NCBI GenBank assembly: GCA_964291215.2
Contig: OZ219791.1
Location: forward strand, 2,048,001 to 2,112,000
DNA: 64,000 bases
Direction: 5' to 3'
DNA from: Alphaproteobacteria bacterium
Lineage (GTDB): Bacteria > Pseudomonadota > Alphaproteobacteria > MPNO01 > UBA830
Shown here: in pieces, positions 15,820 to 54,900 of the stretch
How the letters are laid out: every line of letters begins with the position of its first letter
How positions within the stretch are numbered: the first letter of the stretch is position 1
Made by a program: the position numbers and the translations under genes
Notes under the pieces: generated by a model
Databases searched by the model: none
What the model was told of the DNA's origin: nothing
Seen by the model: only the letters and a program-made list of their open reading frames with translations

Positions 15820-15940
15820 CGAAAAGCCCCCGCTTTGAGGCGGGGGCTTGAGACACCGGTGGATGATCCTGGGACACCGAGCCCGCACGAAGGATCGATT
15901 TGCTGCGAAAAGGAAACCGACCGCTTCTCGATTTGCTACG
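15820..15940 (-). ncRNA. tracrRNA
   Basis: Anti-repeat GTAGCAAATCGAGAAGCGGTCG (15939-15918); 3' terminator AAGCCCCCGC-CTCAAA-GCGGGGGCTT-TT; upstream extended -10-like TGCTAACAT; resembles the P. lavamentivorans tracrRNA as recalled. Confidence 0.9.
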
Positions 15941-15980
15941 GGCACGATGTTAGCATGCGGCGCGAGTAAAGCAATGGGGA

Positions 15981-20487: not shown

Positions 20488-21571
20488 ACTGTAGCAAATC
20501 GAGAAGCGGCCGCAATCCGCAGCGAGCTCGACGTCGGACCGGCGGCCGTGCGCACTGTAGCAAATCGAGAAGCGGCCGCAATCCGCAGCATGAAGAATAG
20601 CGACAAACCCCGCAGCGTCACTGTAGCAAATCGAGAAGCGGCCGCAATCCGCAGCGTTAGCTATGTACTCGGCGCAACCATCAGTACTGTAGCAAATCGA
20701 GAAGCGGCCGCAATCCGCAGCCTGATCCTCATAGGAGATGCTCTTACCTGCACTGTAGCAAATCGAGAAGCGGCCGCAATCCGCAGCGCGCGACGCCGAC
20801 GCCGGGCTTGCCTTCGAACTGTAGCAAATCGAGAAGCGGCCGCAATCCGCAGCCAGAACCGGCTTCGCAACGTCCGGCCCTGCACTGTAGCAAATCGAGA
20901 AGCGGCCGCAATCCGCAGCGTCCGTAATGCCAAGTCCCGAGTCAACAGAACTGTAGCAAATCGAGAAGCGGCCGCAATCCGCAGCAGTAATCGAGGAAGA
21001 CGTGGGATTTTTGACACTGTAGCAAATCGAGAAGCGGCCGCAATCCGCAGCCTCTCAGGATCTACAATGAGTACTTCAAATACTGTAGCAAATCGAGAAG
21101 CGGCCGCAATCCGCAGCGGCCTCGCCCGTCAGGAGGCGGACGCCGACACTGTAGCAAATCGAGAAGCGGCCGCAATCCGCAGCTCGCGCAGAGCTCCAGT
21201 CGCCACCGGCACCACTGTAGCAAATCGAGAAGCGGCCGCAATCCGCAGCGCAAGCGTCTCAGGGTCCTTGAGCACCGCGACTGTAGCAAATCGAGAAGCG
21301 GCCGCAATCCGCAGCAATCACCCACGGCAAAGCCAATGCCTGTCAACTGTAGCAAATCGAGAAGCGGCCGCAATCCGCAGCGATGCCCCTTGATGACCTG
21401 CCCGCCCGCGCACTGTAGCAAATCGAGAAGCGGCCGCAATCCGCAGCGCCCTCCGCGAACGGAACACCACGTCGGTGACTGTAGCAAATCGAGAAGCGGC
21501 CGCAATCCGCAGCATATACCGCCCGGCATCGTCCAGCCATCCGACTGTAGCAAATCGAGAAGCGGCCGCAA
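20488..21571 (-). CRISPR. type II-C array: 16 full 36-bp repeats, one truncated 28-bp repeat, 16 spacers of 30 bp
   Basis: ACTGTAGCAAATCGAGAAGCGGCCGCAATCCGCAGC recurs every 66 bp. Minus-strand orientation is inferred from tracrRNA complementarity and the TGCTACAGT extended -10 at the repeat 3' end. Confidence 0.98.
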
Positions 21572-21967
21572 GCCGCGTGCAGGCCGCAGCCGAGGACATC
21601 GTCAACAAGCTCAGGGCCCGGAGGTTCCGCGCCGACGCTCTGGAGGAAGACGCACGCAAATTGCGACCGTCAACCTCGACAGCCTCGAGCACGAGAACCC
21701 GCGCCCGGTCGGCTGCCTGTGCCTCGAGGCGCGATCCCGGCTTCACGACCTCGGCATCACGGGCCGCGAGTGTGCTGATCGTCGCCAGGATGATCCGCCA
21801 GCGAGCGCTGGCTGCGCGATGACAGCGCGACCGCGGAGCTTCCGGATCCGGAGGGCAAGTCGCTGTACCGCATCGGCGACCTGCGCCACCGGGCCGCCAT
21901 CCGGAAGGAGCTGTTCAACCGCGAGCGCGCGCTGCATCCCCGACACCATCGCCTTTTACGATCTCAC

Positions 21968-23529: not shown

Positions 23530-24143
23530 GATCTCACCAATGTTCACGGCCGCGCCGACGGCAAGCTGCCCCGCTTCGGGCGCTCGAAGCAGAAGCGCAA
23601 TGATTGCCCCACGCTTGCGCGGCGCAGGCTTTCGGCGCAGTTGCGAGGTCTTGCGGGGCAACGTGGCCGGGCACGGATGCGCTGTCGAGGCTGGAGGCGG
23701 GCCCGGCAGCGAAGCCGACGGCAGTCATGGACGCCGGTACCGAGGCGAACATCGCGTGGCGGGCACGGCTGGATCGCGGGCGGCGCCGTCCGAGGGTGGG
23801 CCCGAGGCTGATCATCAGCACCAACCACGAGGTGCAGGCGCCTTGCCAGTGAGGATGGCGCGGCGTGGTCAGCGAGAGCAGGAAGAGGGCCGAGGACGCC
23901 ATTCCTGACCGCAGGGCTTCGAGGCGGCGCTGGAAAAGCTTCATGACGGCCTCTCGGCCAAGGGCCGGCTCAAGCGCCACGACAAGGTGCTGGATAGCGG
24001 TCTCAGGCAGCGCTTCTCCACCGTCGTCCGGCACTACGAGATCACCGTCGAGAAGGCCGGCGCCAACGCAACTGCCGTGCGCTTCAGCCACAGACGACAA
24101 GACAACGCGGGCGCCTGCGCACCAGCGACCGGGAGACCGTCCT

Positions 24144-25484
24144 TATATGACCAGGTTTTGTCCCCTTGATGATGAAATCATCCACAGCAGTTGGGGGCGG
24201 GAAAATGTGGATAACCTCGACTATGGGAGAGCTATGGTTGCAGAGAGATTCCGCTCCCCTGTGTGAGAACGTACAGGGGATCAAACGATCTTCGCGGAGG
24301 TTGCCGTTCCGTCCTTGGCTTTATAGAGCCGTTCCCGAGCGTGGCAACCTCCTTTGGCGTCCCTTGCGTCCTGAATGGATGCTTGGGTTTGAACCGTATC
24401 ATCATAAGGCGAGGAACGATGGTCAAGGTAGTAGCAGGGGTCAGCCAGTCTGGACATCTGGGGCGTCGTTTTACGAACGACGCCACGGGCACGTGGCTTC
24501 GCAGCCTCGAGGTAACCCGTGTGGTGGGCGACAGGTCGCTATCACCGCAAGGAGTGTCTTCATGACCGGGGCTTCGAGGTTGTCCTGCCCGTTGAGGGCT
24601 TCGCCGAGGCTTTGGGCCAACCGCGTTGACGCCAAGATCGGCACGGTGCGATCTCGAGCCTGTGGCCCCTCAGGAAGCCTTCCTCAACTGCCTGGGGGAT
24701 CTCCTGGTGCCGCGCTTGTCGACGTGCGCACCAAGCTGAGGCAAGTGGCAGATGAGGTGGATGGCGAGACCGTCACAAGGGCTTCGGCGGCCGATCTCGA
24801 TGATTGCCAAGCTGGATGCAGTGATCAAAGCGGTGATCCCGAGCAGAGGTACCCTGACCTCGATCCAGTGACCGCCGCAGCCCTTCTTTGTTGGATGCCC
24901 GAACTCGGCAGCGTCGGCAGCCTTGATCGGGGTGGCGCCGATGGCCACGGTACTCGGCATATCCGAGGCGGGCGCCGGAGGCCACGTGATCTCCTGTTCA
25001 TGGCCGCGACCTCGGCAGCACGCTTCAACGCGGATCTGGTGCGCCACAAGGCCCACAAAGTCGCCATTGTCGCCGTGATGCGCAAGCTCTGGCGAACACC
25101 TTGCTGCGACAGCAGCGTTGCTGGTCGACCGAAGCACCGGTGAGTGAGCGAAGGAGACACGGCCCTGCCGAGAGCGCGATCGGGACTGTATCGACAGTCT
25201 CCCTCTACGACACGACTTGGGGAGAATGTCTGCAGATCATCGTCGAGGCCGACATCGAGGAGACGCCGTGCGGCTTGTGGACGGGACACCTGGAACCCGG
25301 ACGGTCACGTGCCCGGGGACGGCAAGGTAGCCGCGTTCACGTGACCAATGGACGGCAACCCGCCGCCGGGACCACAAGCTTCATGTCGCCTCGCTCGCAG
25401 GGCAAATCCCACACCGCTTGTGGACAACCACAGAAAACATCACCGCAGACACCCGCAAAAATCTTGCCAAGAAACATGGATGCT
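24144..25484 (+). mobile_element. IS110-family element copy 1, flanked by duplicated CT core
   Basis: CT at 24142-43 and 25483-84; recombinase remnants from ATG 24419 (RVDAKI, VTAAALLCWMPELG, RHIRGGR, KVAIVAVMRKL). Confidence 0.9.
24251..24418 (+). ncRNA. IS110 bridge RNA, copy 1
   Basis: Partly deleted 5' hairpin, target-binding loop 24296-24352 and donor-binding loop 24358-24418; guides match the flanks and the circle junction. Confidence 0.8.
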
Positions 25485-33393: not shown

Positions 33394-34341
33394 TCAGGCG
33401 GTTCTACCGACCGGCCACGGCTTGTCGTCGTGGATTGCAGGGCGGGTTGTGATCTCCTCGCCGATATTGATCACCATCAGGTCGTAGCCGATTTCGACTG
33501 CGCCCCGGTAGCCTTCCCGAATCTGGTCGAGCGCCGGGCCGACGACGTCATTGTTGTTGTACATGTGGTAGATGACGCCCAGGCGCGGACGGGTCGCGGC
33601 GAAGACTTCTCCGGCCTCGCGTGGCGAGGTGTGATAGATCTCGGAGATCTTCCTTGCAATCTCGATCGGACGGTTCGATTTTTCGGCGTAGAGTTCGGCC
33701 GGTGGAAAGGCCTCGTGGATGAGGAGGTCGCAGCCGGCGGCATGTTCGATCAGTGCGTCGCATTTCTTGGTATCGCCGGAGAAGACGAAGACGCGCTCTC
33801 CGTATTCGATCTTCATGCCATAGGTATTCTGCGGTTCGGTGTGGATGACCTTGAAGGCGGTGATGCGAACGCCCCCCTGGTCGAAGCCGTCGTAGATCAC
33901 CCCGTCGCGGTCGAATTCGACACAGGTTACCTCGTGGCCGCCGGGTGGCAGCGCGTCGAGACGCGTTTCGATGTCCCAGGCATAGATGCGGCGCAGCCCG
34001 TCGACAATGTTTGCCGTACCCGGCGGTCCCCATACCTTGAGCGGCGTGCGGCGGCCGTAGGTCCATCCGCCAATCCAGAAGTGATCCAGGCCGCCGATAT
34101 GGTCGACATGGTGATGGGTCACGAAGACCTTGTCGACCGCCGTGAACGGGGTCTCCAGCGAGGTGAAGTTCTGCGGAACGCCGGGGCCGCAATCGAGCAG
34201 GAATTTCTCGTCTCCGGCTTCGACAAACACGCCAGCGCAAGCTTGGCCCCGCCGTGGAAACGGTGTACCGGTGCCGAGGAGGGTGACGCGGATCTCGTCA
34301 TCGGCCAGCGCCTCGCCGGGCGAAAAGGCATTGTCGCTCAT
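33394..34341 (-). CDS. MBL-fold metallo-hydrolase (RNase Z/AtsA-like)
   Basis: TLLGTGTP, LLDCGPG, THHHVDHIGG, FSGDT, LLIHE, YHTSP. Confidence 0.88.
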   Translation of the reverse strand: MSDNAFSPGEALADDEIRVTLLGTGTPFPRRGQACAGVFVEAGDEKFLLDCGPGVPQNFTSLETPFTAVDKVFVTHHHVDHIGGLDHFWIGGWTYGRRTPLKVWGPPGTANIVDGLRRIYAWDIETRLDALPPGGHEVTCVEFDRDGVIYDGFDQGGVRITAFKVIHTEPQNTYGMKIEYGERVFVFSGDTKKCDALIEHAAGCDLLIHEAFPPAELYAEKSNRPIEIARKISEIYHTSPREAGEVFAATRPRLGVIYHMYNNNDVVGPALDQIREGYRGAVEIGYDLMVINIGEEITTRPAIHDDKPWPVGRTA

Positions 34342-35613: not shown

Positions 35614-35829
35614 GGGCGCGGCGCCGGGGCGAAGCCTGAAAAACGTTTCTGATACTGACAACCACTCTTCGCCAGATCCGGGCCGACGATGACGATGTCT
35701 TTTCGGCGGAAATCGGCAGACATGGCGGAAGGTCGAGTGGCTCGATAGTACGGCACCCTCCGCACGGGCGCAATGTCGAGCGCCGGCCCGGGCAGGTGTT
35801 TCCCACGCTGCATTCAATTTTGCTGTCTT

Positions 35830-36420
35830 CTGCTGTCCGGAGGTTTCACAGCGTGCCGGGTTTTCTGGCTTCGGGGCCGTCCGCGGTCGTCGCCGGCGGC
35901 GTTGCCGGCGCGTGGGCGGGTTGTTTTCGGGATGTAGGCGGGTTGTGGGCGGCGTCCGGGAATCAGCCGGACACCATTGGCGCTCAGGGCTGCGACGGCT
36001 TCCCGGCGGTCGAGCCGCCGCCGTGTTTCGGCGAGGCCCTCGCGTCGGTTGGCGAAGATCACCGCGAGCGCGATGTTGTCGAGGCTGGCGCGGTTTGCGG
36101 GTCAGGCAGGCGTCCTCGCCGAAGACGCAGTCTCGGTGGTTCATGTTTTCCACAGCCCGCGGCCGCAGCAGTTTCTCTGGCGACGCGTGTTGCGCATCGA
36201 GCGAGGTGATGATGTACCGGTGTGGTCGTTGCCGCTCGCTGCGCCGCTGGCGCTCTTTCCCGGCGGCTCGCGGTAGCATGCGGGCGATCTGCCGGGGTAG
36301 TTGATCAGGTCCTCGAGCGGCACGTATCGAGCGCTGCTCGAGGCGTCCGTGGGTCTTGTCGAACTCCTCCTTGAAGCGGCCGGTCGGCGGAAATCCGGAA
36401 GTGGCAACACAAAACCGGAC
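35830..36420 (-). pseudogene. ISAs1-family transposase remnant
   Basis: DKTHGRLEQR, YIITSL...SPEKLL, AVENMNHR...FGEDAC. Confidence 0.75.
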
Positions 36421-36462
36421 GGACGGCCGAAACCGGCGCCCCGGACGAGATGGCGATCGCGA

Positions 36463-36512
36463 GTACGCATCGTCGCCTGGAACTGCGGCGGCGCGTTTCA
36501 TAGGAGGCTTGA
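36463..36512 (+). pseudogene. N-terminal stub of an endonuclease/exonuclease/phosphatase (EEP) gene
   Basis: VRIVAWNCGGAFHRR ends at the IS1634 left TIR. Confidence 0.55.
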
Positions 36513-37860
36513 CCCAAGTTGGCATTTTTTGCGTCAGTTGAAGCCAAAATTTATGCAGCAGCCTCACTCGATATACTATATGTTATTATTTTTTTTATAT
36601 TTTATACTATATTTGTGATTTCCTGTCCGGGGTGGCCGATGTAGTGCCAGAATATTGCCGCTTCGCTCGACCCCGCCGCCAAACCCGGTATATCCGGAGC
36701 CTCATCAACACAAAAGGCTCCAGACAACATGTTCATCAGGACAACCAAAACCCGCAGCACCGCAGACGGCAAACCCGTCCACCGGCTCGTGCTTTCTCAG
36801 CGCATCGGCGACAAGGTCAGGCAGCGCACGCTGCCTCGGTACCGACCATCCGGTGGCGCGCAAGAACCGGAAGGAGGTTGCCGCCGAAGCGCTGGCCGCC
36901 CGCCGCTGTTCGAAGCCGCGTGCAGGCCGCAGGACATCGTCAACAGGGGCCCGGAGGTTCCGCGCCGACGCTCTGGAGGGAGACGCACGCAAATTGCGAC
37001 CGTCAACCTCGACAGCCTCGAGAACCCGCGCTCGGTCGGCTGCCTGTGCCTCGAGGCGCGATCTCGGCTTCACGACCTCGGCATCACGAGTGCGCTGATC
37101 GTCGCCAGGATGATCCGCCAGCGAGCGCTGACTGCGCGATGACAGCGCGGAGCTTCTGGAGCGCAAGTCGCGCAAGACGCTGTACCGCATCGGCGACCTG
37201 CGTCACCGGGCCGCCAGGAACTGTTCAACCGCGAGCGCGCGCTGCATCCCCGACACCATCGCCTTTTACGACCTCACCAATGTTCACGGCCGCGCCGACG
37301 GCAAGCTCCCCTGCTTCGGGCGCTCGAAGCGCAATGATTGCCCCACGCTGGCGCGGCGCGGGCTTTCGGCGCAGTTGCGAGGTCTTGCGGGGCAACGTGA
37401 CCGGGCACGGATGCGCTGCCGAGGCTGGAGGCGGGCGGCGAAGCCGACGGCAGTCATGGACGCCGGCACCGAGGCGAACATCGCGTGGCGAGCACGGCTG
37501 AATCGCGGTCAGCGCCGCCCGAGGGTGGGTCCGAGGCTGATCACCAACCACGAGGTGCAGGCGCCTTGCCAGCGAGGATGGCGCGGCGTGGAGAGCAGGA
37601 AGAGGGCCGAGGACGCCATTCCTGACCGCAGGGCTTCGAGGCGGCGCTGGAAAAGCTTCATGACGGCCTCTCGGCCAAGGGCCGGCTCAAGCGCCACGAC
37701 AAGGTGCTGGATAGCGGTCTCAGGCAGCGCTTCTCCACCGTCGTCCGGCACTACGAGATCACCGTCGAGAAGGCCGGCGCCAACGCAACTGCCGTGCGCT
37801 TCAGCCACAGACGACAAGACAACGCGGGCGCCTGCGCACCAGCGACCGGGAGACCGTCCT

Positions 37861-39209
37861 TATATGACCAGGTTTTGTCCCCTTGATGATGAAATCATCC
37901 ACAGCAGTTGGGGGCGGGAAAATGTGGATAACCTCGACTATGGGAGAGCTATGGTTGCAGAGAGATTCCGCTCCCCTGTGTGAGAACGTACAGGGGAGCG
38001 GGGATCAAACGATCTCCGCGGAGGTTGCCGTTCCGTCCTTGGCTTTATAGAGCCGTTCCCGAGCGTGGCAACCTCCTTTGGCGTCCCTCGCATGGATGCT
38101 TGGGTTTGAACCGTATCATCATAAGGCGAGGAACGATGGTCAAGGTAGTAGCAGGGGTCAGCCAGTCTGGACATCTGGGGCGTCGTTTTACGAACGACGC
38201 CACGGGCACGTGGCTTCGCAGCCTCGAGGTAACCCGTGTGGTGGGCGACAGGTCGCTATCACCGCAAGGAGTGTCTTCATGACCGGGGCTTCGAGGTTGT
38301 CCTGCCCGTTGAGGGCTTCGCCGAGGCTTTGGGCCAACCGCGTTGACGCCAAGATCGGCACGGTGCGATCTCGAGCCTGTGGCCCCTCAGGAAGCCTTCC
38401 TCAACTGCCTGGGGGATCTCCTGGTGCCGCGCTTGTCGACGTGCGCACCAAGCTGAGGCAAGTGGCAGATGAGGTGGATGGCGAGACCGTCACAAGGGCT
38501 TCGGCGGCCGATCTCGATGATTGCCAAGCTGGATGCAGTGATCAAAGCGGTGATCCCGAGCAGAGGTACCCTGACCTCGATCCAGTGACCGCCGCAGCCC
38601 TTCTTTGTTGGATGCCCGAACTCGGCAGTCTCGACCGTCGTCAGGCGGCAGCCTTGATCGGGGTGGCGCCGATGGCCACGGTACTCGGCATATCCGAGGC
38701 GGGCGCCGGAGGCCGCGTGATCTCCTGTTCATGGCCGCGACCTCGGCAGCACGCTTCAACGCGGATCTGGTGCGCCACAAGGCCCACAAAGTCGCCATTG
38801 TCGCCGTGATGCGCAAGCTCTGGCGAACACCTTGCTGCGACAGCAGCGTTGCTGGTCGACCGAAGCACCGGTGAGTGAGCGAAGGAGACACGGTCCTGCC
38901 GAGAGCGCGATCGGGACTGTCTCGACAGTCTCCCTACTACGACACGACTTGAGGAGAATGTCTGCAGATCATCGTCGAGGCCGACATCGAGGAGATCGAA
39001 CCGCCTTGGGACACCTGGAACCCGGACGGTCACGTGCCCGGGGACGGCAAGGTAGCCGCGTTCACGTGACCAATGGACGGCAACCCGCCGCCGGGACCAC
39101 AAGCTTCATGTCGCCTCGCTCGCAGGGCAAATCCCACACCGCTTGTGGACAACCACAGAAAACATCACCGCAGACACCCGCAAAAACCTTGCCAGGAAAC
39201 ATGGATGCT
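37861..39209 (+). mobile_element. IS110-family element copy 2, flanked by duplicated CT core
   Basis: CT at 37859-60 and 39208-09; recombinase remnant from ATG 38136. Confidence 0.9.
37968..38135 (+). ncRNA. IS110 bridge RNA, copy 2
   Basis: 5' hairpin 37968-38001; TBL 38020-38076 (guides TTCCGTCCT and TCCCGAG); DBL 38082-38135 (guides ATGGATGCT and ATAAG). Confidence 0.85.
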
Positions 39210-39557
39210 CGGGACATGGATATCGAGGCCACCTTCCGTTCATTGAAATCCGAGCCCGGATTGCGCCCGGCCAGCGCATCGCCGCCCACCTGTTGATCGC
39301 CGTGCTCGTCGCGGTGCATCTAATCCCCGCGCGGGGCATCGACAAGTGCTGGACATCAATCCGCGAGAGCATGCGGAACCAGGGTCACCACGCGCCTGCG
39401 CGCATTGATCGTCAACCGACAGGACACGCACCGCCGGGGTCGCCGAAATCTCCTCGGCGGCTGGCGTCGAACCCACCGCACAAGGAGCCGCCTCACAAGC
39501 TGACAGAATTCAACAGAATGTAGTGCCATGTTGCAATCGGCCGACAAAAAAATCGTG

Positions 39558-42283
39558 TTATATCAACTCCGCACTTTGCGTCAGCGGCCGGAAGAAGCCG
39601 GCGATCCGGCGCAGCGCCGCCATCACCGTCTTGCGACGCCCGTGATGGGAGGTCACCGTCAGCCGGGTCTGGCCGGCGTGGTGGGTCTGGCGGGCAACCC
39701 CGTGCAGGAGCAGCGGCCGGCTGGTGATCGCCTCGCGGTGATGGTCGGGGTCGGCGAGGTGCACGAACAGGCTCCACCAGTTGTAGATGAGCGCGATCAG
39801 CCGGGCCATGTGCCGGCAGCGCGTCAGGTCCCGGGTGGTAAAACCGCCCCACTGGTTCTTCAACTCGTCGAAGCCGTTCTCCGCGTCGGCCCGGTCGCGG
39901 TAGAGCTGGGCCAGCGAGCGTATCTCCAGATCCAGCGAGGTCGCCAGCACCGCGAACTCCCATACCCCGGTGCCGGGCTGCGCCTCGGTCCAGAACAGCT
40001 CGCCCTGGGCCTTGTCGCCACGCGTCAGCGCCAGCGTCGCAGGAAGCCGCCGGCGCAGCACCACAACCCGGCGCGTTCGGCTCCAGCCCTGCAGACGCAG
40101 ATCGGCCCCGACCAGCCCTGGCCCGCATCCTCCCAGCCGTCCCGCGCCATCAGCCGCTCGGCAAGCCGGCGCGCCCCCTTCGTCAGGCGCAGCTTGAACA
40201 GATAGTCCAGACCCGCAGCCTCGCACGACGCCATGTTGGCCTCGCTGCCCCAGTCCTTGTCGCCCCGCACCAGACGCGGCCAGCGATCCCGATTACGCAA
40301 CCTGATGTCTGGAAATTGTCGTGAAGCTCTCAGTCATCGAGCTGTTCCCATTTGATCTTGGTTTCGGTTTCCCATTTTTCGTCGATGAGGACCGCGGTTG
40401 AGAGGCGCTCCAACGAGGCGAGGTTCGGAAAGACCCTGGCTTTGGAGGTGCGCCGCTTGAGATCTTGCTGGATCGGTCGCTCGATGCCGTTCGAGGTTCG
40501 CATACGCTTGTGGTGAGCATCGGGCAAGGTGAAGACAGCGAGCCCCGCATTGTTTTCCAGCCAGGAAGCCTGGATGCTTGTCGCGATAGCTGGCCACGAG
40601 GGCGCCCAGTTCAGCCTCGGCGGTTTGGAGTGAGGACGCATGGCTCCGAGCTGTTTTCCAATACGTTTCCTGATGTCGTTGTTCGGTGCACGGCGTTTTG
40701 TGCCAGGTGGAACTGGCAGCGCTGCCACGTCGCCGCGCCCAGCACCGTGCCGCTTTCAGCCCGGCATGGTCATCCGAGACGATGAAGGTCGTACCATGCA
40801 GGGCTAGCAAGCTTTCCAGGAAGGCTCTCCAATGGACCTCGGCCTCGGAGAGCGCCACAGAGAGCCCCAGAACGTGCCTGCAGCCCCTATTCCGATGGCC
40901 GAGAGCACTGCGACATCGCGCACAACGCCGTCATGGCGGGCTTTTTCGTAGCGCGCATCCAGGTATTCCATCAGGGGCCGGTTGCGCGGCGAGTTCTTCA
41001 TCGAGCAACCTGGTGGCCCGGCTGACCTGAGAAGAGGACAGGCTCCCGAACTCGCGCATTACATCCTGCCGCGTGGAAACACCCTTGATGTACATCTCGG
41101 CTACGGCGCGAGAAGATCGCTGGCCTCGTTCAAGCGACTGGGGACGGGTCGTCCCCGTGACCGTTTGGCACCTGAACGGTAACAGTGGGGGTGTCGATCC
41201 GCTTGTAGTCGTTGGCCCTGTCGCTCCGGTGGCCTGCTTTCAAGTACTGCTCGCGCTCGATTTGCATCGCAAGCTCGAAGAGCTGACCAAAGACCCGCCC
41301 CAGATCCGTTGCTCCGTTTGCGATCAGATGTTCCAAAACAGTCCCGATCGTCGTAGTGTGTCGCAGGTCCATTCGCTTCCTCCATGAAGGTTTTACAACT
41401 CCATGGGATAGCACGATGGCGCCGCGTTTCACTGGGGGGGCTAGCCCCCCAGTGAAACGCCTCAAAGCGCAAACCTCAGACAAATTTCCAGACATCAAGT
41501 TACAGTACCGCGATCCCCCGCCCGAGACGGTCGAGCAACGCCCACAAGGACGGCGCCGCGCGCCTCGAATGGTGATGGTTGCCCGGCGCTACCTCGACAT
41601 CAAGAACAAGCCGCGTGCCCGCCATCACAAACGCATGGCAGGCATGCGAGGGGCGGCCCGGCTTCTTGGGGTTGTAGCTCACAACCGCCCCCTCCTGACG
41701 ACCGTAAAGCGGCTTGATCGTCGTGTCGCAGTCCAGAACCCACGGCTCCCTCAGCAGCGGACGGACCACCTCGTCCAGATGGCCCTGAAGCCACGATGTG
41801 CCGGCCTCCGCACCGATCCGCTCCAGACCGCGCCGCACCGAAATCCTCGCTCGCAACCTTGTCCATTCCCAACAGCGCAGGGTTCACTCCGTCGCCGCGC
41901 AGCGACGTGATGTGCGCATACCGCGATTGCCCCGCCAGAACCGACAGAAGAACCGTCCCCAGAACGTCCCGCTTCGACGGCGCGTTCGGGCTCGTGTAGT
42001 GCAGCGGGCAGTCCGCAACCAAAGCGTCAAAGCGACCGCTCACCTTCAGATACTCCGCGAAAAACGCCAGATGCCCCAGCGGCGTCACCGCCGCATCAGG
42101 GTCCCATTCCACATGAACCGCGCCGCCGAAGGGTCCACCTTCACGAACGCTCGGGTGACATCCCGCACAGCGCCAGGATAGTCACCCAAAGGGTGAGCCT
42201 CTTCGGCCCCTGAAAAGCCGCTCATAACCCCAGACTACAAGGAATTCGGCAAGGCCCCGCCATCCTCAACTGCCGGATTTAGG
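39558..42283 (-). mobile_element. IS1380-family element interrupted by IS256
   Basis: End CCTAAATCCGGCAGTT; EWDPDAAVTPLG, YTSPNAPSKRDVLG, LDCDTTIKPLYG, RADAENGFDELKNQW. Confidence 0.85.
40291..41509 (-). mobile_element. IS256-family element with 8-bp TSD, degenerate
   Basis: TIRs GATTACGCAACCTGATGTCTGGAAATT and AATTTCCAGACATCAAGTTACAGTACC; GCGATCCC duplicated; LDARYEK, IVSDDHAGLKAA, RTSNGIER. Confidence 0.9.
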
Positions 42284-42854
42284 ATGAACCCCGAGGCAGC
42301 GGAAAACTACGCCAGCAACCGGCTCACCATTACGCGCCAGATCACCTTCACCTCGGCCCTGAAGGGAGCCGACGGCAAGAACCGCCGCTGCGTCATCGAC
42401 GTGACGCTGGCCGTCAACGGCATCCTGGTGGTGACCGCCGAACTCAAGAACCTGCTGACCAAACAGCGTGCCGCCGATGCGATTCGCCAATACCGGAATG
42501 ATCACGACGGGCGCGATCTACTCTTCGCTTTCAAGAAACGTGCGCTGATTCACTTTGCCGTGGACCCGGACGAAGCGTGGATGACAACCCGGCTGGAAGG
42601 CAAGGAGACCCGTTTCCTGTCCTTCAACCGGGGGAACGACCACGGAGCGGACAACCCGCCAGTCGAAGGCGACTGGAAGACCCATTACCTGTGGGACGAA
42701 GTACTGCAGGCCGGCAACCTGCTGGAAATCCTGCAACGCTTCATGCACTTGGAAGTGAAGAAAACGCAGGTCAAGACCGACAAGGGCGCGCGCACCGTGC
42801 GATAGGAGACGATGACCTTTCCGCGCTATCACCAACTCGACGCGGTGCAGAAAC
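42284..42854 (+). pseudogene. hsdR: type I restriction enzyme HsdR internal fragment
   Basis: IDVTLAVNG...[35 protein letters not shown]; cut by IS1380 and IS630. Confidence 0.85.
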
Positions 42855-43559
42855 TTGTCGCACACGACGATCCGGCGCATCTGGGGCGCGTTCGGCCTGC
42901 AGCCGCACCGCTGCAAGACCTTCAAGCTCTCCAGCGACCCGCACTTCGTGGACAAGGTACGGGACATCGTCGGGCTCTATCTGTCGCCGCCGGACCGCGC
43001 GCTGGTGCTGTGTGTCGACGAGAAAAGCCAGGCCCTCGACCGCACCCAGCCGATGCTGCCGGCTGAGCGGCGCACCCACGATTGCAAACGCAACGGCACC
43101 ACCTCGCTGTTTGCCGCGCTCGCCACCGGCGCGGTCATCGGCAAGTGCTATCGCCGCCACCGGGCCAGGTAGTTCCTCGACTTCCTCAAGCAGATCGACC
43201 GCTCCGTCCTCGAGGATCCATATCGTCATGGACAACTATGCCACCCACAAAACCGCGGCGGTCAAAGCCTGGCTGGCCCGGCAACCGTACTGGCACGTCC
43301 ACTTCATGCCGACACCCGACCCCTGGCTCAACCAGGTCGAGCGCTGGTTCGCCGAGTTGACCCGCAAGCAGTTGCAGCGGGGCGTCCAACGCTCGACCCT
43401 GCAACTCGAAACCGACATCCGGGCCTTCATCGAAACCCACAACGAAAATCCCAAGCCCTTCAAGTGGACCAGATCAGCCGACGAAATCCTCGCCGCCGTC
43501 AAGCACTTCTGTTTCCACGTCGGACAAAATTTATGCCACGAACTTTAGATTCAGGTGAC
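42855..43559 (+). mobile_element. IS630-family element, 5' truncated and degenerate
   Basis: [51 protein letters not shown]; end GATTCAGGTGAC followed by TA. Confidence 0.88.
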
Positions 43560-54059: not shown

Positions 54060-54900
54060 CGCCGCGCGCAGAAGCGGGAAAGCGGGTTACAGGCGGCCGA
54101 GCGCATACGACAGATCAGCGTCTTGTCGTCAGGACCTGAGGGAGGAGCCGGATGCGAACAGCGCTCGTCCGGATCTGGTGTGCCAGGCGAACTGGCAGAA
54201 GGCAGGGGGTGGAAGTCCCCCGGAACAAAGGAGTAACCAAACCGCGTTTCTCCGCGAGCCGTGCGTCGGTTCCCGCGAGGGGGCAGGCGAAGCGTCGGTA
54301 GCGGGGCTGATGGGCACCGAAAAGACGATGATCCGGGGTGCCGAGGTTTTCGGATCGGTCGAAGGCAACATCGCAGGCATCGATTTGGTGAGATGCCGGC
54401 GCGCCTCGCGGTGTCAGAGAATCCGTCCGTACTTCTTCTGTCGGGACCCTGGGAGATCTTCAAGCTGTCCCGCCTGTCGGGACCGCGCAGGGAAAGGAGA
54501 AAGCCGAAGCCTGTGATGAACGGTTTGAAGAAGGGGCCCTGTGAAGGCGGCGAACAAGGGAGCTTCTGCAAAGTTGGCGGAGGAAAGGGCCTCGACCAAG
54601 GGGAATTCGGGACACCAAAGCACGCGCCGAACGCAGTGTCGGGTGCCACAGGCGGCGGACCGGATACGGAAAGCCGCAGAGGTTCGACTGGAAGCGACTG
54701 GAGCGCATGACCGAGATTCTTTGGCCGCGCGCAACAATCCGCCACCCATGGCCGGACCAGCGGTTTGCCGTCAAGCACCCGAGGTAGGAGCCGGATGGAC
54801 TGGCGTCCATGTCCGGATCTGTGCGGGGAGTGTGCAGTAATGCGCATTCCTACCGTAACGGCGGGGGGGGGGGGGGGGGAACCCGGTTCCCTACCGCGAT
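54060..54900 (+). mobile_element. group II intron A (3' part, ORF deleted), host of a nested intron
   Basis: IEP stubs QAAERIRQ and DQRLVVRT*; DV GAGCCGGATGCG...CGCTCGTCCGGATC (54145-54175); DVI resumes at 54860 and ends CCCTACCGCGAT. Confidence 0.8.
54178..54859 (+). mobile_element. group II intron B, ORF-less, 682 nt, class E-like
   Basis: 5' GTGTG; GGTGCCGA...GAAGGCAACA; GGGAAAGG; DV GAGCCGGATGGAC...TCCATGTCCGGATC; DVI ending CCTACCGTAAC; IEP stubs VPQAADRIRKAA and HPWPDQRFAVKHPR*. Confidence 0.88.

Follow-up and report, generated by a model that had tools for sequence, protein, structure and literature searches.

An eroded alphaproteobacterial IS110-group element with an IS621-type left-end RNA, very probably moved by RNA-guided recombination at a CT core

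The closest described systems to the element analysed here are IS621 and ISCro4/IS622 of the IS110 family (PMC11208160, PMC11208158, PMC13626964; PDB 8wt6, 9t56). As far as these sources describe them, they have in common with the present family a recombinase with DEDD and Ser catalytic residues (retained here in intact relatives), a CT core, a promoter at the junction of the joined ends, a left-end RNA with a target and a donor loop, a discontinuous right donor guide (RDG), handshake bases, and a short CAT/ATG inverted repeat around the donor. Measured against the same descriptions, the present family differs in its donor, ATGGATG-CT-T(A/G)TATG, in a left target guide (LTG) that mostly has 8 nt rather than 9, in a natural right target guide (RTG) of 7 nt, in two 5' hairpins, in a left end of about 317 nt compared with 191, in a right end that exceeds the left because it carries a passenger ORF, and in DnaA-box-like motifs; in addition, the copy in the window (the whole stretch of 64,000 nucleotides that was analysed) is dead. 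ISEc21, also of the IS110 group (PMC11187229), likewise has an upstream non-coding guide RNA and likewise inserts into a conserved part of another IS family's transposase, close to a catalytic residue; its insertions into IS3 family genes reportedly produce no duplication, whereas the target here is IS1634 and CT stands at both ends. For the DnaA-like motifs the precedent is the outside end of Tn5/IS50, in which a host DnaA box lies within a transposon end (PMC3347997). That element, of the DDE cut-and-paste type, has one box inside its 19-bp end, where it competes with the transposase, whereas here three to six boxes flank the core, on both sides and at distances of 35-90 nt.

The element and its surroundings in the window are as follows, the targets having been delimited from the sequence, the empty site and the host copies.
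37859..39209, + strand: eroded IS110-group element of 1351 nt, with the core CT at either boundary
37852..37860, + strand: left target GACCGTC plus core CT
39208..39215, + strand: core CT plus right target CGGGAC
36605..37858, + strand: host IS1634-family element, left part, eroded (from sequence and host copies)
39210..39560, + strand: host IS1634-family element, right part, with the DIEATFRSLKSE motif (from sequence and host copies)
24142..25484, + strand: copy 1 of the element, inserted at the identical site in a sister host copy (from sequence and host-flank tree)

A first-pass annotation of this DNA had described a CT duplication bounding the element, flanks of the form GACCGTC, CT...CT, CGGGAC, and joined ends that predict the junction ACATGGATG-CT-TATATG; the duplication lies at 37859-37860 and 39208-39209, and the flanks and the predicted junction are as described. 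The uninterrupted target, GAGACCGTC-CT-CGGGAC, exists at C2:3461096 of the source genome (G000). A short CT core at either end, a single core at the empty site and the lack of terminal inverted repeats place the element in the IS110 family. The IS1111 group, which is defined by subterminal inverted repeats of 7-17 bp and a guide RNA downstream of the ORF, was ruled out, as the guide RNA here lies upstream of the ORF and the terminal repeat is just the 3-5-bp CAT/ATG. The intact relative L026 is 1968 nt long, compared with 1351 nt for the window copy. In the passenger-bearing subclade the left end measures 308-377 nt and the right end 515-715 nt, the reverse of the typical arrangement, because a 96-aa passenger ORF sits in the right end; relatives without the passenger keep the longer left end (316-341 versus 108-113 nt). 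The circle joint is absent from the contigs of four sequencing runs, a kind of data that drops rare forms, and the junction 15-mers are absent from the G000 assembly. As a side observation, in several G000 copies (e.g., C2:178906, C2:686703, C1:1705009) the initial 8-11 nt have given way to other sequence, of at least three kinds, exactly at a CTAG variant of position 9-12, as if other ISs insert there.

The left end encodes an RNA in which both loops can be read.
37968..38017, + strand: two 5' hairpins of the bridge RNA (from fold and alignment), the second shortened by a 7-nt deletion
38020..38076, + strand: target-binding loop, with LTG at 38032-38039 (7/8 match), RTG at 38057-38063 (7/7) and handshake at 38064-38065
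38082..38135, + strand: donor-binding loop, with left donor guide (LDG) at 38092-38100 (9/9), RDG at 38116-38125 (5 + 4, one bulge) and handshake GC at 38126-38127

The region 37960-38140 folds with z = -5.3, and none of 200 shuffles was equally stable; no Rfam family covers the element. The earlier description of a 12-bp hairpin at 37968-38001 is right in position but not in length, which is 15 bp when G-U pairs are counted. The target-loop stem 38020-38029/38067-38076 and all four guides are present as it gave them (LTG TTCCGTCCT at 38031-38039, RTG TCCCGAG at 38057-38063, LDG ATGGATGCT at 38092-38100 and RDG ATAAG at 38121-38125), and the RDG match runs 4 nt further past a one-base bulge, TCAT-C-ATAAG against CTTAT-ATGA. 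The outer stem of the target-binding loop has been shortened by deletions of 6 and 5 nt. Erosion also created the donor-loop stem CGTCCCTCGC/GCGAGGAACG, which had been proposed as part of the architecture: it is present in the window copy but in no other copy, being the product of two 7-nt deletions. Fuller copies and intact relatives have 7 nt more on each side and form a different 14-bp donor-loop stem, and copy 1, which lacks one of the two 7-nt pieces, does not fold the quoted donor loop. The left targets of L038-L050 (from one other MAG) and of G000:C2:2356347 show two registers of match to the LTG, offset by a single base, which suggests a slipping guide of 8/9 nt. The target differs from that of IS621, as had been pointed out; this is the ordinary state of IS110 bridge RNAs according to PMC11208160, so that presenting it as a distinguishing property overstated the case. 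Because the loops are complementary both to the insertion site and to the element's own joined ends, movement guided by RNA at the CT core is likely.

Covariation between guides and targets among homologues, the check that the first-pass annotation had asked for, is found both in other genomes and within G000. In other genomes 36 of 52 loci have both ends and a readable target loop, giving 13 guide pairs and 28 guide-target combinations; left guides match their own targets at 3.77 of 6 positions compared with 1.95 after permutation, and right guides at 4.53 of 5 compared with 1.79, values reached in 0 of 20,000 permutations on either side, although the guides are related by descent, so that permutation values overstate the contrast and kinship inflates every covariation test reported here. 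Within G000, where 36 of 66 copies were usable (23 have damaged left ends, 6 lack a right end and 3 gave no parsed loop), 15 guide pairs score 3.98 on the left against 3.14 permuted (1/20,000) and 4.08 on the right against 3.12 (0/20,000), under the same reservation. Judged from the sequences, many unrelated guide words match their own flanks, and this is plain by eye. Eight right-guide variants occur among 57 G000 copies, with an exact match to the copy's own right site in 36. Nine copies with guide CGGAC occupy CGGTC sites, which needs either an RNA acting in trans or conversion of the loop after insertion; action in trans is allowed for in the account of PMC13626964.

The donor is nearly fixed. 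The RDG tracks the CTTAT/CTTGT left end in all 17 genome-guide combinations, G:T pairs being allowed, and it reads GAG in the G001 element, whose start is CTCG. In 24 of 30 combinations the base at target position 7 is complementary to the donor-loop handshake base. A bridge-type structure imposed on 22 aligned RNAs pairs 86.8% of cells, compared with 41-48% in slid controls, and shows two-sided changes in 25 of its 61 pairs (0/500 shuffles), the scored structure having been drawn from those same 22 sequences; the consensus that RNAalifold finds by itself has another donor-loop fold, with the LDG paired. The family thus carries a left-end RNA whose loops covary with target and donor, as in the IS110 group.

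The coding part of the element comprises two remnants.
38136..38870, + strand: recombinase pseudogene with 735/948 nt remaining and 15 frame-breaking deletions; the codons for D9 and S232 are lost and those for E51 and D93 cut
38895..39009, + strand: remnant of the 96-aa passenger ORF, 115/290 nt (from homologues and alignment to L026)

The open frame of a fuller copy matches 315-aa homologues at about 75-83% identity, and the closest genome records for these are Alphaproteobacteria MAGs. Intact relatives match PF01548 and PF02371, reach 206.8 against a cut-off of 140 with NF033542, and match the IS621 structure (8wt6, E 2.6e-28) as well as that of ISCro4. They carry D9, E51, D93, D96 and S232, with the region of the E/S column at 231-232 conserved, and so combine the RuvC-like DEDD domain with the Tnp domain and catalytic serine of IS110 recombinases. 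In profile searches the window copy yields sub-cut-off fragments alone. Its ORF had been called frameshifted as assembled; the frame is indeed broken, but by erosion rather than mis-assembly, with 43 deletions in the element, 15 of them frame-breaking. None of the 59 full G000 copies has an intact recombinase ORF. A DNA search of 60 relatives gave no real copy, the single match covering 40 nt, and a protein profile search found an intact distant family member in G001. A consensus recombinase, which had been suggested as a reagent, need not be rebuilt because intact natural relatives exist. Separately, G000 has two intact IS110-family recombinases of 427-431 aa at C1:883760 (L012) and C1:481582 (L013), which are unrelated to this family at the DNA level.

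The covariation and the family matches uphold the assignment to IS110, the IS621-type RNA layout and the guide-target logic, and the window element itself is a dead relic, unable to move on its own. We consider it very probable that this relic of the IS110 group, with its IS621-type left-end RNA, was moved by RNA-guided recombination at CT, and we hold an IS621-like mechanism for the family as a whole with equally high confidence. By analogy with IS621 (PMC11208160, PMC11208158, PMC13626964), the excised circle would form a TTGCCA-17-TATGAC promoter and express the RNA, whose loops would be bound by a tetramer of the DEDD and Ser recombinase, built of two dimers. LTG and RTG would read CCGTC-CT-CGGGA, LDG and RDG would read ATGGATG-CT-TAT, a handshake G would pair with the C at target position 7, and strands would be exchanged at CT. 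In G000 the family reached about 65 copies, and its target loop came to have several different specificities; the class with CGGGA sites probably entered IS1634 transposase genes several times, and all copies afterwards decayed through deletions of 5-8 nt common to copies in mosaic fashion.

Both sides of the predicted junction carry promoter-like hexamers and DnaA-box-like 9-mers.
37863..37868, + strand: -10-like TATGAC of the predicted junction promoter
37895..37903, + strand: DnaA-box-like 9-mer TCATCCACA, 1 mismatch (TTATCCACA in most close relatives), left end +36
37923..37931, - strand: perfect DnaA-box 9-mer TTATCCACA, left end +64, about 63 nt right of the core
37950..37955, + strand: second -10-like hexamer TATGGT (TATGAT in L030), from alignment, 12 nt before the first hairpin
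39144..39152, - strand: DnaA-box-like 9-mer TTGTCCACA, 66 nt left of the right end
39189..39194, + strand: -35-like TTGCCA, 17 nt ahead of TATGAC in the predicted junction, TTG fixed in 8/8 representatives

The spacing between a TTG-type -35 and a -10-like hexamer is 17 nt in all eight representatives, which predicts the junction promoter from sequence; TATGGT is a weak candidate for an internal promoter. The DnaA-box consensus is TTATCCACA (PMC8203912), and 9-mers of this type are both enriched and positionally conserved in the clade. They occur in the left end of 20 of 20 clade elements and in the right end of 16 of 17, and the eight representatives, which were mostly picked after the boxes had been seen, hold 34 of them within about 100 nt of the junction compared with 1.79 in base shuffles. 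Between the representatives, nt 10-100 of the left end are 46-77% alike, and extra boxes recur on the same strand about 11 nt apart. This IS110 family contains 25 of the 70 perfect DnaA boxes in G000, and the reading frame of that genome's own dnaA is open. The boxes were rejected as a trait of IS110 elements in general: 53 mostly distant loci hold 11 against 9.8 expected, and six of those 11 fall in four loci of the present donor clade. Another repeated element of G000 (e.g., C2:2084146, window 36146) has a perfect TTTTCCACA in at least eight copies.

On balance we favour the reading that the 9-mers about 65 nt on either side of the junction are DnaA sites. That DnaA binding affects transposition is a more doubtful proposal; if it did, DnaA would regulate the junction promoter or help the replicative resolution of the circle. 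A substantial minority possibility is that the TTATCCACA-like motifs form an RNA leader hairpin or serve as binding sites of the recombinase or of some other host protein. Being inverted, the two left-end motifs could pair as RNA, and no box cluster was found at the dnaA locus of G000 nor any clear origin-like cluster elsewhere in that genome. However, the right end has a box too, located upstream of the promoter prediction; in most relatives the inverted pair contains mismatches; boxes on one and the same strand at a spacing of about 11 nt, which are unable to pair, are found in the Rhodobacter-type, L037/L047 and G001 elements; boxes occur in elements without the passenger gene as well; and enzymes of the IS621 type need no such sites. 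For the favoured reading, that the motifs are DnaA sites, we found no literature linking DnaA to IS110 or bridge RNA in titles and abstract openings, nor the word "DnaA" in the main text of the IS110 papers examined; the supplementary data of PMC11208160, which cover thousands of elements, may already include the clade.

G000 comprises 6.15 Mb at 64% GC and holds 66 left and 70 right ends of the family, 59 of them paired as full copies, or about 65 copies in all. The window copy and copy 1 share one position in an IS1634-family transposase gene, and the site of this guide class lies just ahead of the DIEATFRSLK motif in such genes. Of 28 host copies with the site 14 are occupied, all 14 with CT-CGGGA on the right; the perfect 12-mer CCGTC-CT-CGGGA is present in one of the 14 others. 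In the host-flank tree, which is poorly resolved and takes in truncated flanks, the occupied hosts are not grouped in a single clade (8 label changes, of which supported branches force at least 3), which makes several independent insertions likely, with gene conversion as a rival cause. All four guides had been noted as conserved in copy 1, and they are identical there; since copy 1 occupies the identical position in that host IS and groups as sister to the window copy (100/96), this identity lends no independent support, and copy 1 is probably not an independent insertion.

These relationships raise the question of whether the guide-target match reflects one ancient insertion into one IS1634 copy followed by spread of the composite, in which case it would say nothing about repeated targeting. 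The sister position of copy 1 and the window copy, one more such pair, and the failure of 1054 of 1267 indel pairs (83%) in the four-gamete test, by which they are incompatible with a tree, speak for this history, and the four-gamete failures make conversion between copies likely, which could scramble trees. Yet occupied hosts are interspersed with empty ones, with the forced changes already given; the mean divergence among the IS110 inserts is 1.4%, below the 2.4-2.8% of the most similar host pair; and the same guide class also occupies the unrelated sites TGTCGTC/CGGGAA, GACGTCC/CGGGAA and CTCCGTC/CGGGTT, so we regard a single insertion with composite spread as unlikely and retain repeated RNA-guided targeting. 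In a contig of sequencing run X3 the right end of the element (39209) is fused to the opposite strand at 37794, which points to a further IS110 target within that IS1634 in another strain.

Aligned to L026, the 59 full copies have 26-52 deletions each (43 in the window copy), amounting to 2481 deletion events and 130 insertions. By size, 1519 of the events span 5-8 nt and 6 span 2-3 nt; among distinct deletions 102 of 192 are of 5-8 nt, some long ones possibly being lineage differences. The deletions are common to copies in mosaic fashion and show modest microhomology (at least 2 nt in 35% versus 19%). Other G000 repeats have the same 5-7-nt bump in deletion sizes, and genome-wide, including the IS remnants at window 35800-43550, multi-copy mobile elements are eroded by deletions of 5-8 nt, with single-copy genes left intact; of the 500-nt tiles of G000, about a third (4340/12308) are repeated. 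That the element is intact in the cell and its ORF broken by assembly or polishing of the long-read genome, as a two-contig assembly, the breakage of 59/59 full copies and the large repeated fraction might suggest, is extremely improbable and largely refuted, since deep contigs of three runs (X1-X3, of which X1 may be the source data) carry the deletion alleles, SNPs in a single-copy stretch of 9.7 kb set X2 and X3 apart, 361 G003 ORFs yielded 160 single-copy orthologues of which 151 are intact and 9 were flagged, an unrelated IS110 keeps an open 427-aa frame, and deletions of 5-8 nt at shared sites are unlike homopolymer slips. For real deletions, Ku, as a sign of an NHEJ source, was not found in G000, and MutS has an open frame there. 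The loop-size limit of MutS is about 4 nt. Our best guess, given the open mutS and the failure to find Ku, is that slippage loops too large for MutS, spread by conversion, made the deletions; nothing specific on such a pattern was found in the literature at the level of titles and listings.

The 96-aa passenger ORF follows the recombinase in the close subclade and has 763 unnamed homologues. It matches no Pfam or NCBIfam family, just unnamed Atlas clusters with a low recognition score, and no plasmid match was obtained. A 98-aa ORF 53% identical to it directly follows istB of an IS21-family element (L174, genome G057), so that a small ORF is likewise carried there, although after istB and not after an IS110 recombinase.

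Recombination by bridge RNA is already established and new specificities are expected; the variant features here are the DnaA-like boxes, the cargo gene and the diversification of guides within one genome. We offer, as a tentative and rather speculative combination, that an alphaproteobacterial clade of bridge recombinases recruited DnaA, its boxes gating transcription of the RNA or loading replication on the excision intermediate, that a subclade moves captured IS21-associated cargo, and that a repeat-wide process of 5-8-nt deletions, passed from copy to copy, killed all of the family in this host. If true, recruitment of DnaA would be the first host-factor control of an RNA-guided recombinase, and if the boxes bind DnaA, jumping would be tied to the cell cycle. 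The candidate sites at the circle junction make the copying and regulation of IS110 circles directly testable. The compact 315-aa clade has intact members, a donor that is fixed, right guides of 7 nt and no fewer than 13 natural target programmes, and would be usable as an orthogonal editor. The single genome also records the diversification of a target loop across about 65 copies; the locus further adds natural cargo in an IS110 right end, and an unusual deletion spectrum confined to mobile repeats.

Several further features were seen in the surroundings. Right of the host IS1634, window 39558-43548 contains nested IS1380-like, IS630 and probably IS256-like remnants, and 33394-34341 (- strand) holds an intact RNase Z-like MBL-fold hydrolase whose best model, GntH, scores 281 bits, below the cut-off of 333. 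A group II intron fragment lies at 54212-54423 (+ strand; Rfam RF02005, 129 bits), and group II intron reverse transcriptases adjoin or sit inside the related elements L017, L035 and L042. Finally, a CRISPR array at 20488-21576 has about 17 repeats of 36 nt with 30-nt spacers and a period of 66, and an anti-repeat at 15918-15954, 4.6 kb away, suggests a type II locus with a tracrRNA.
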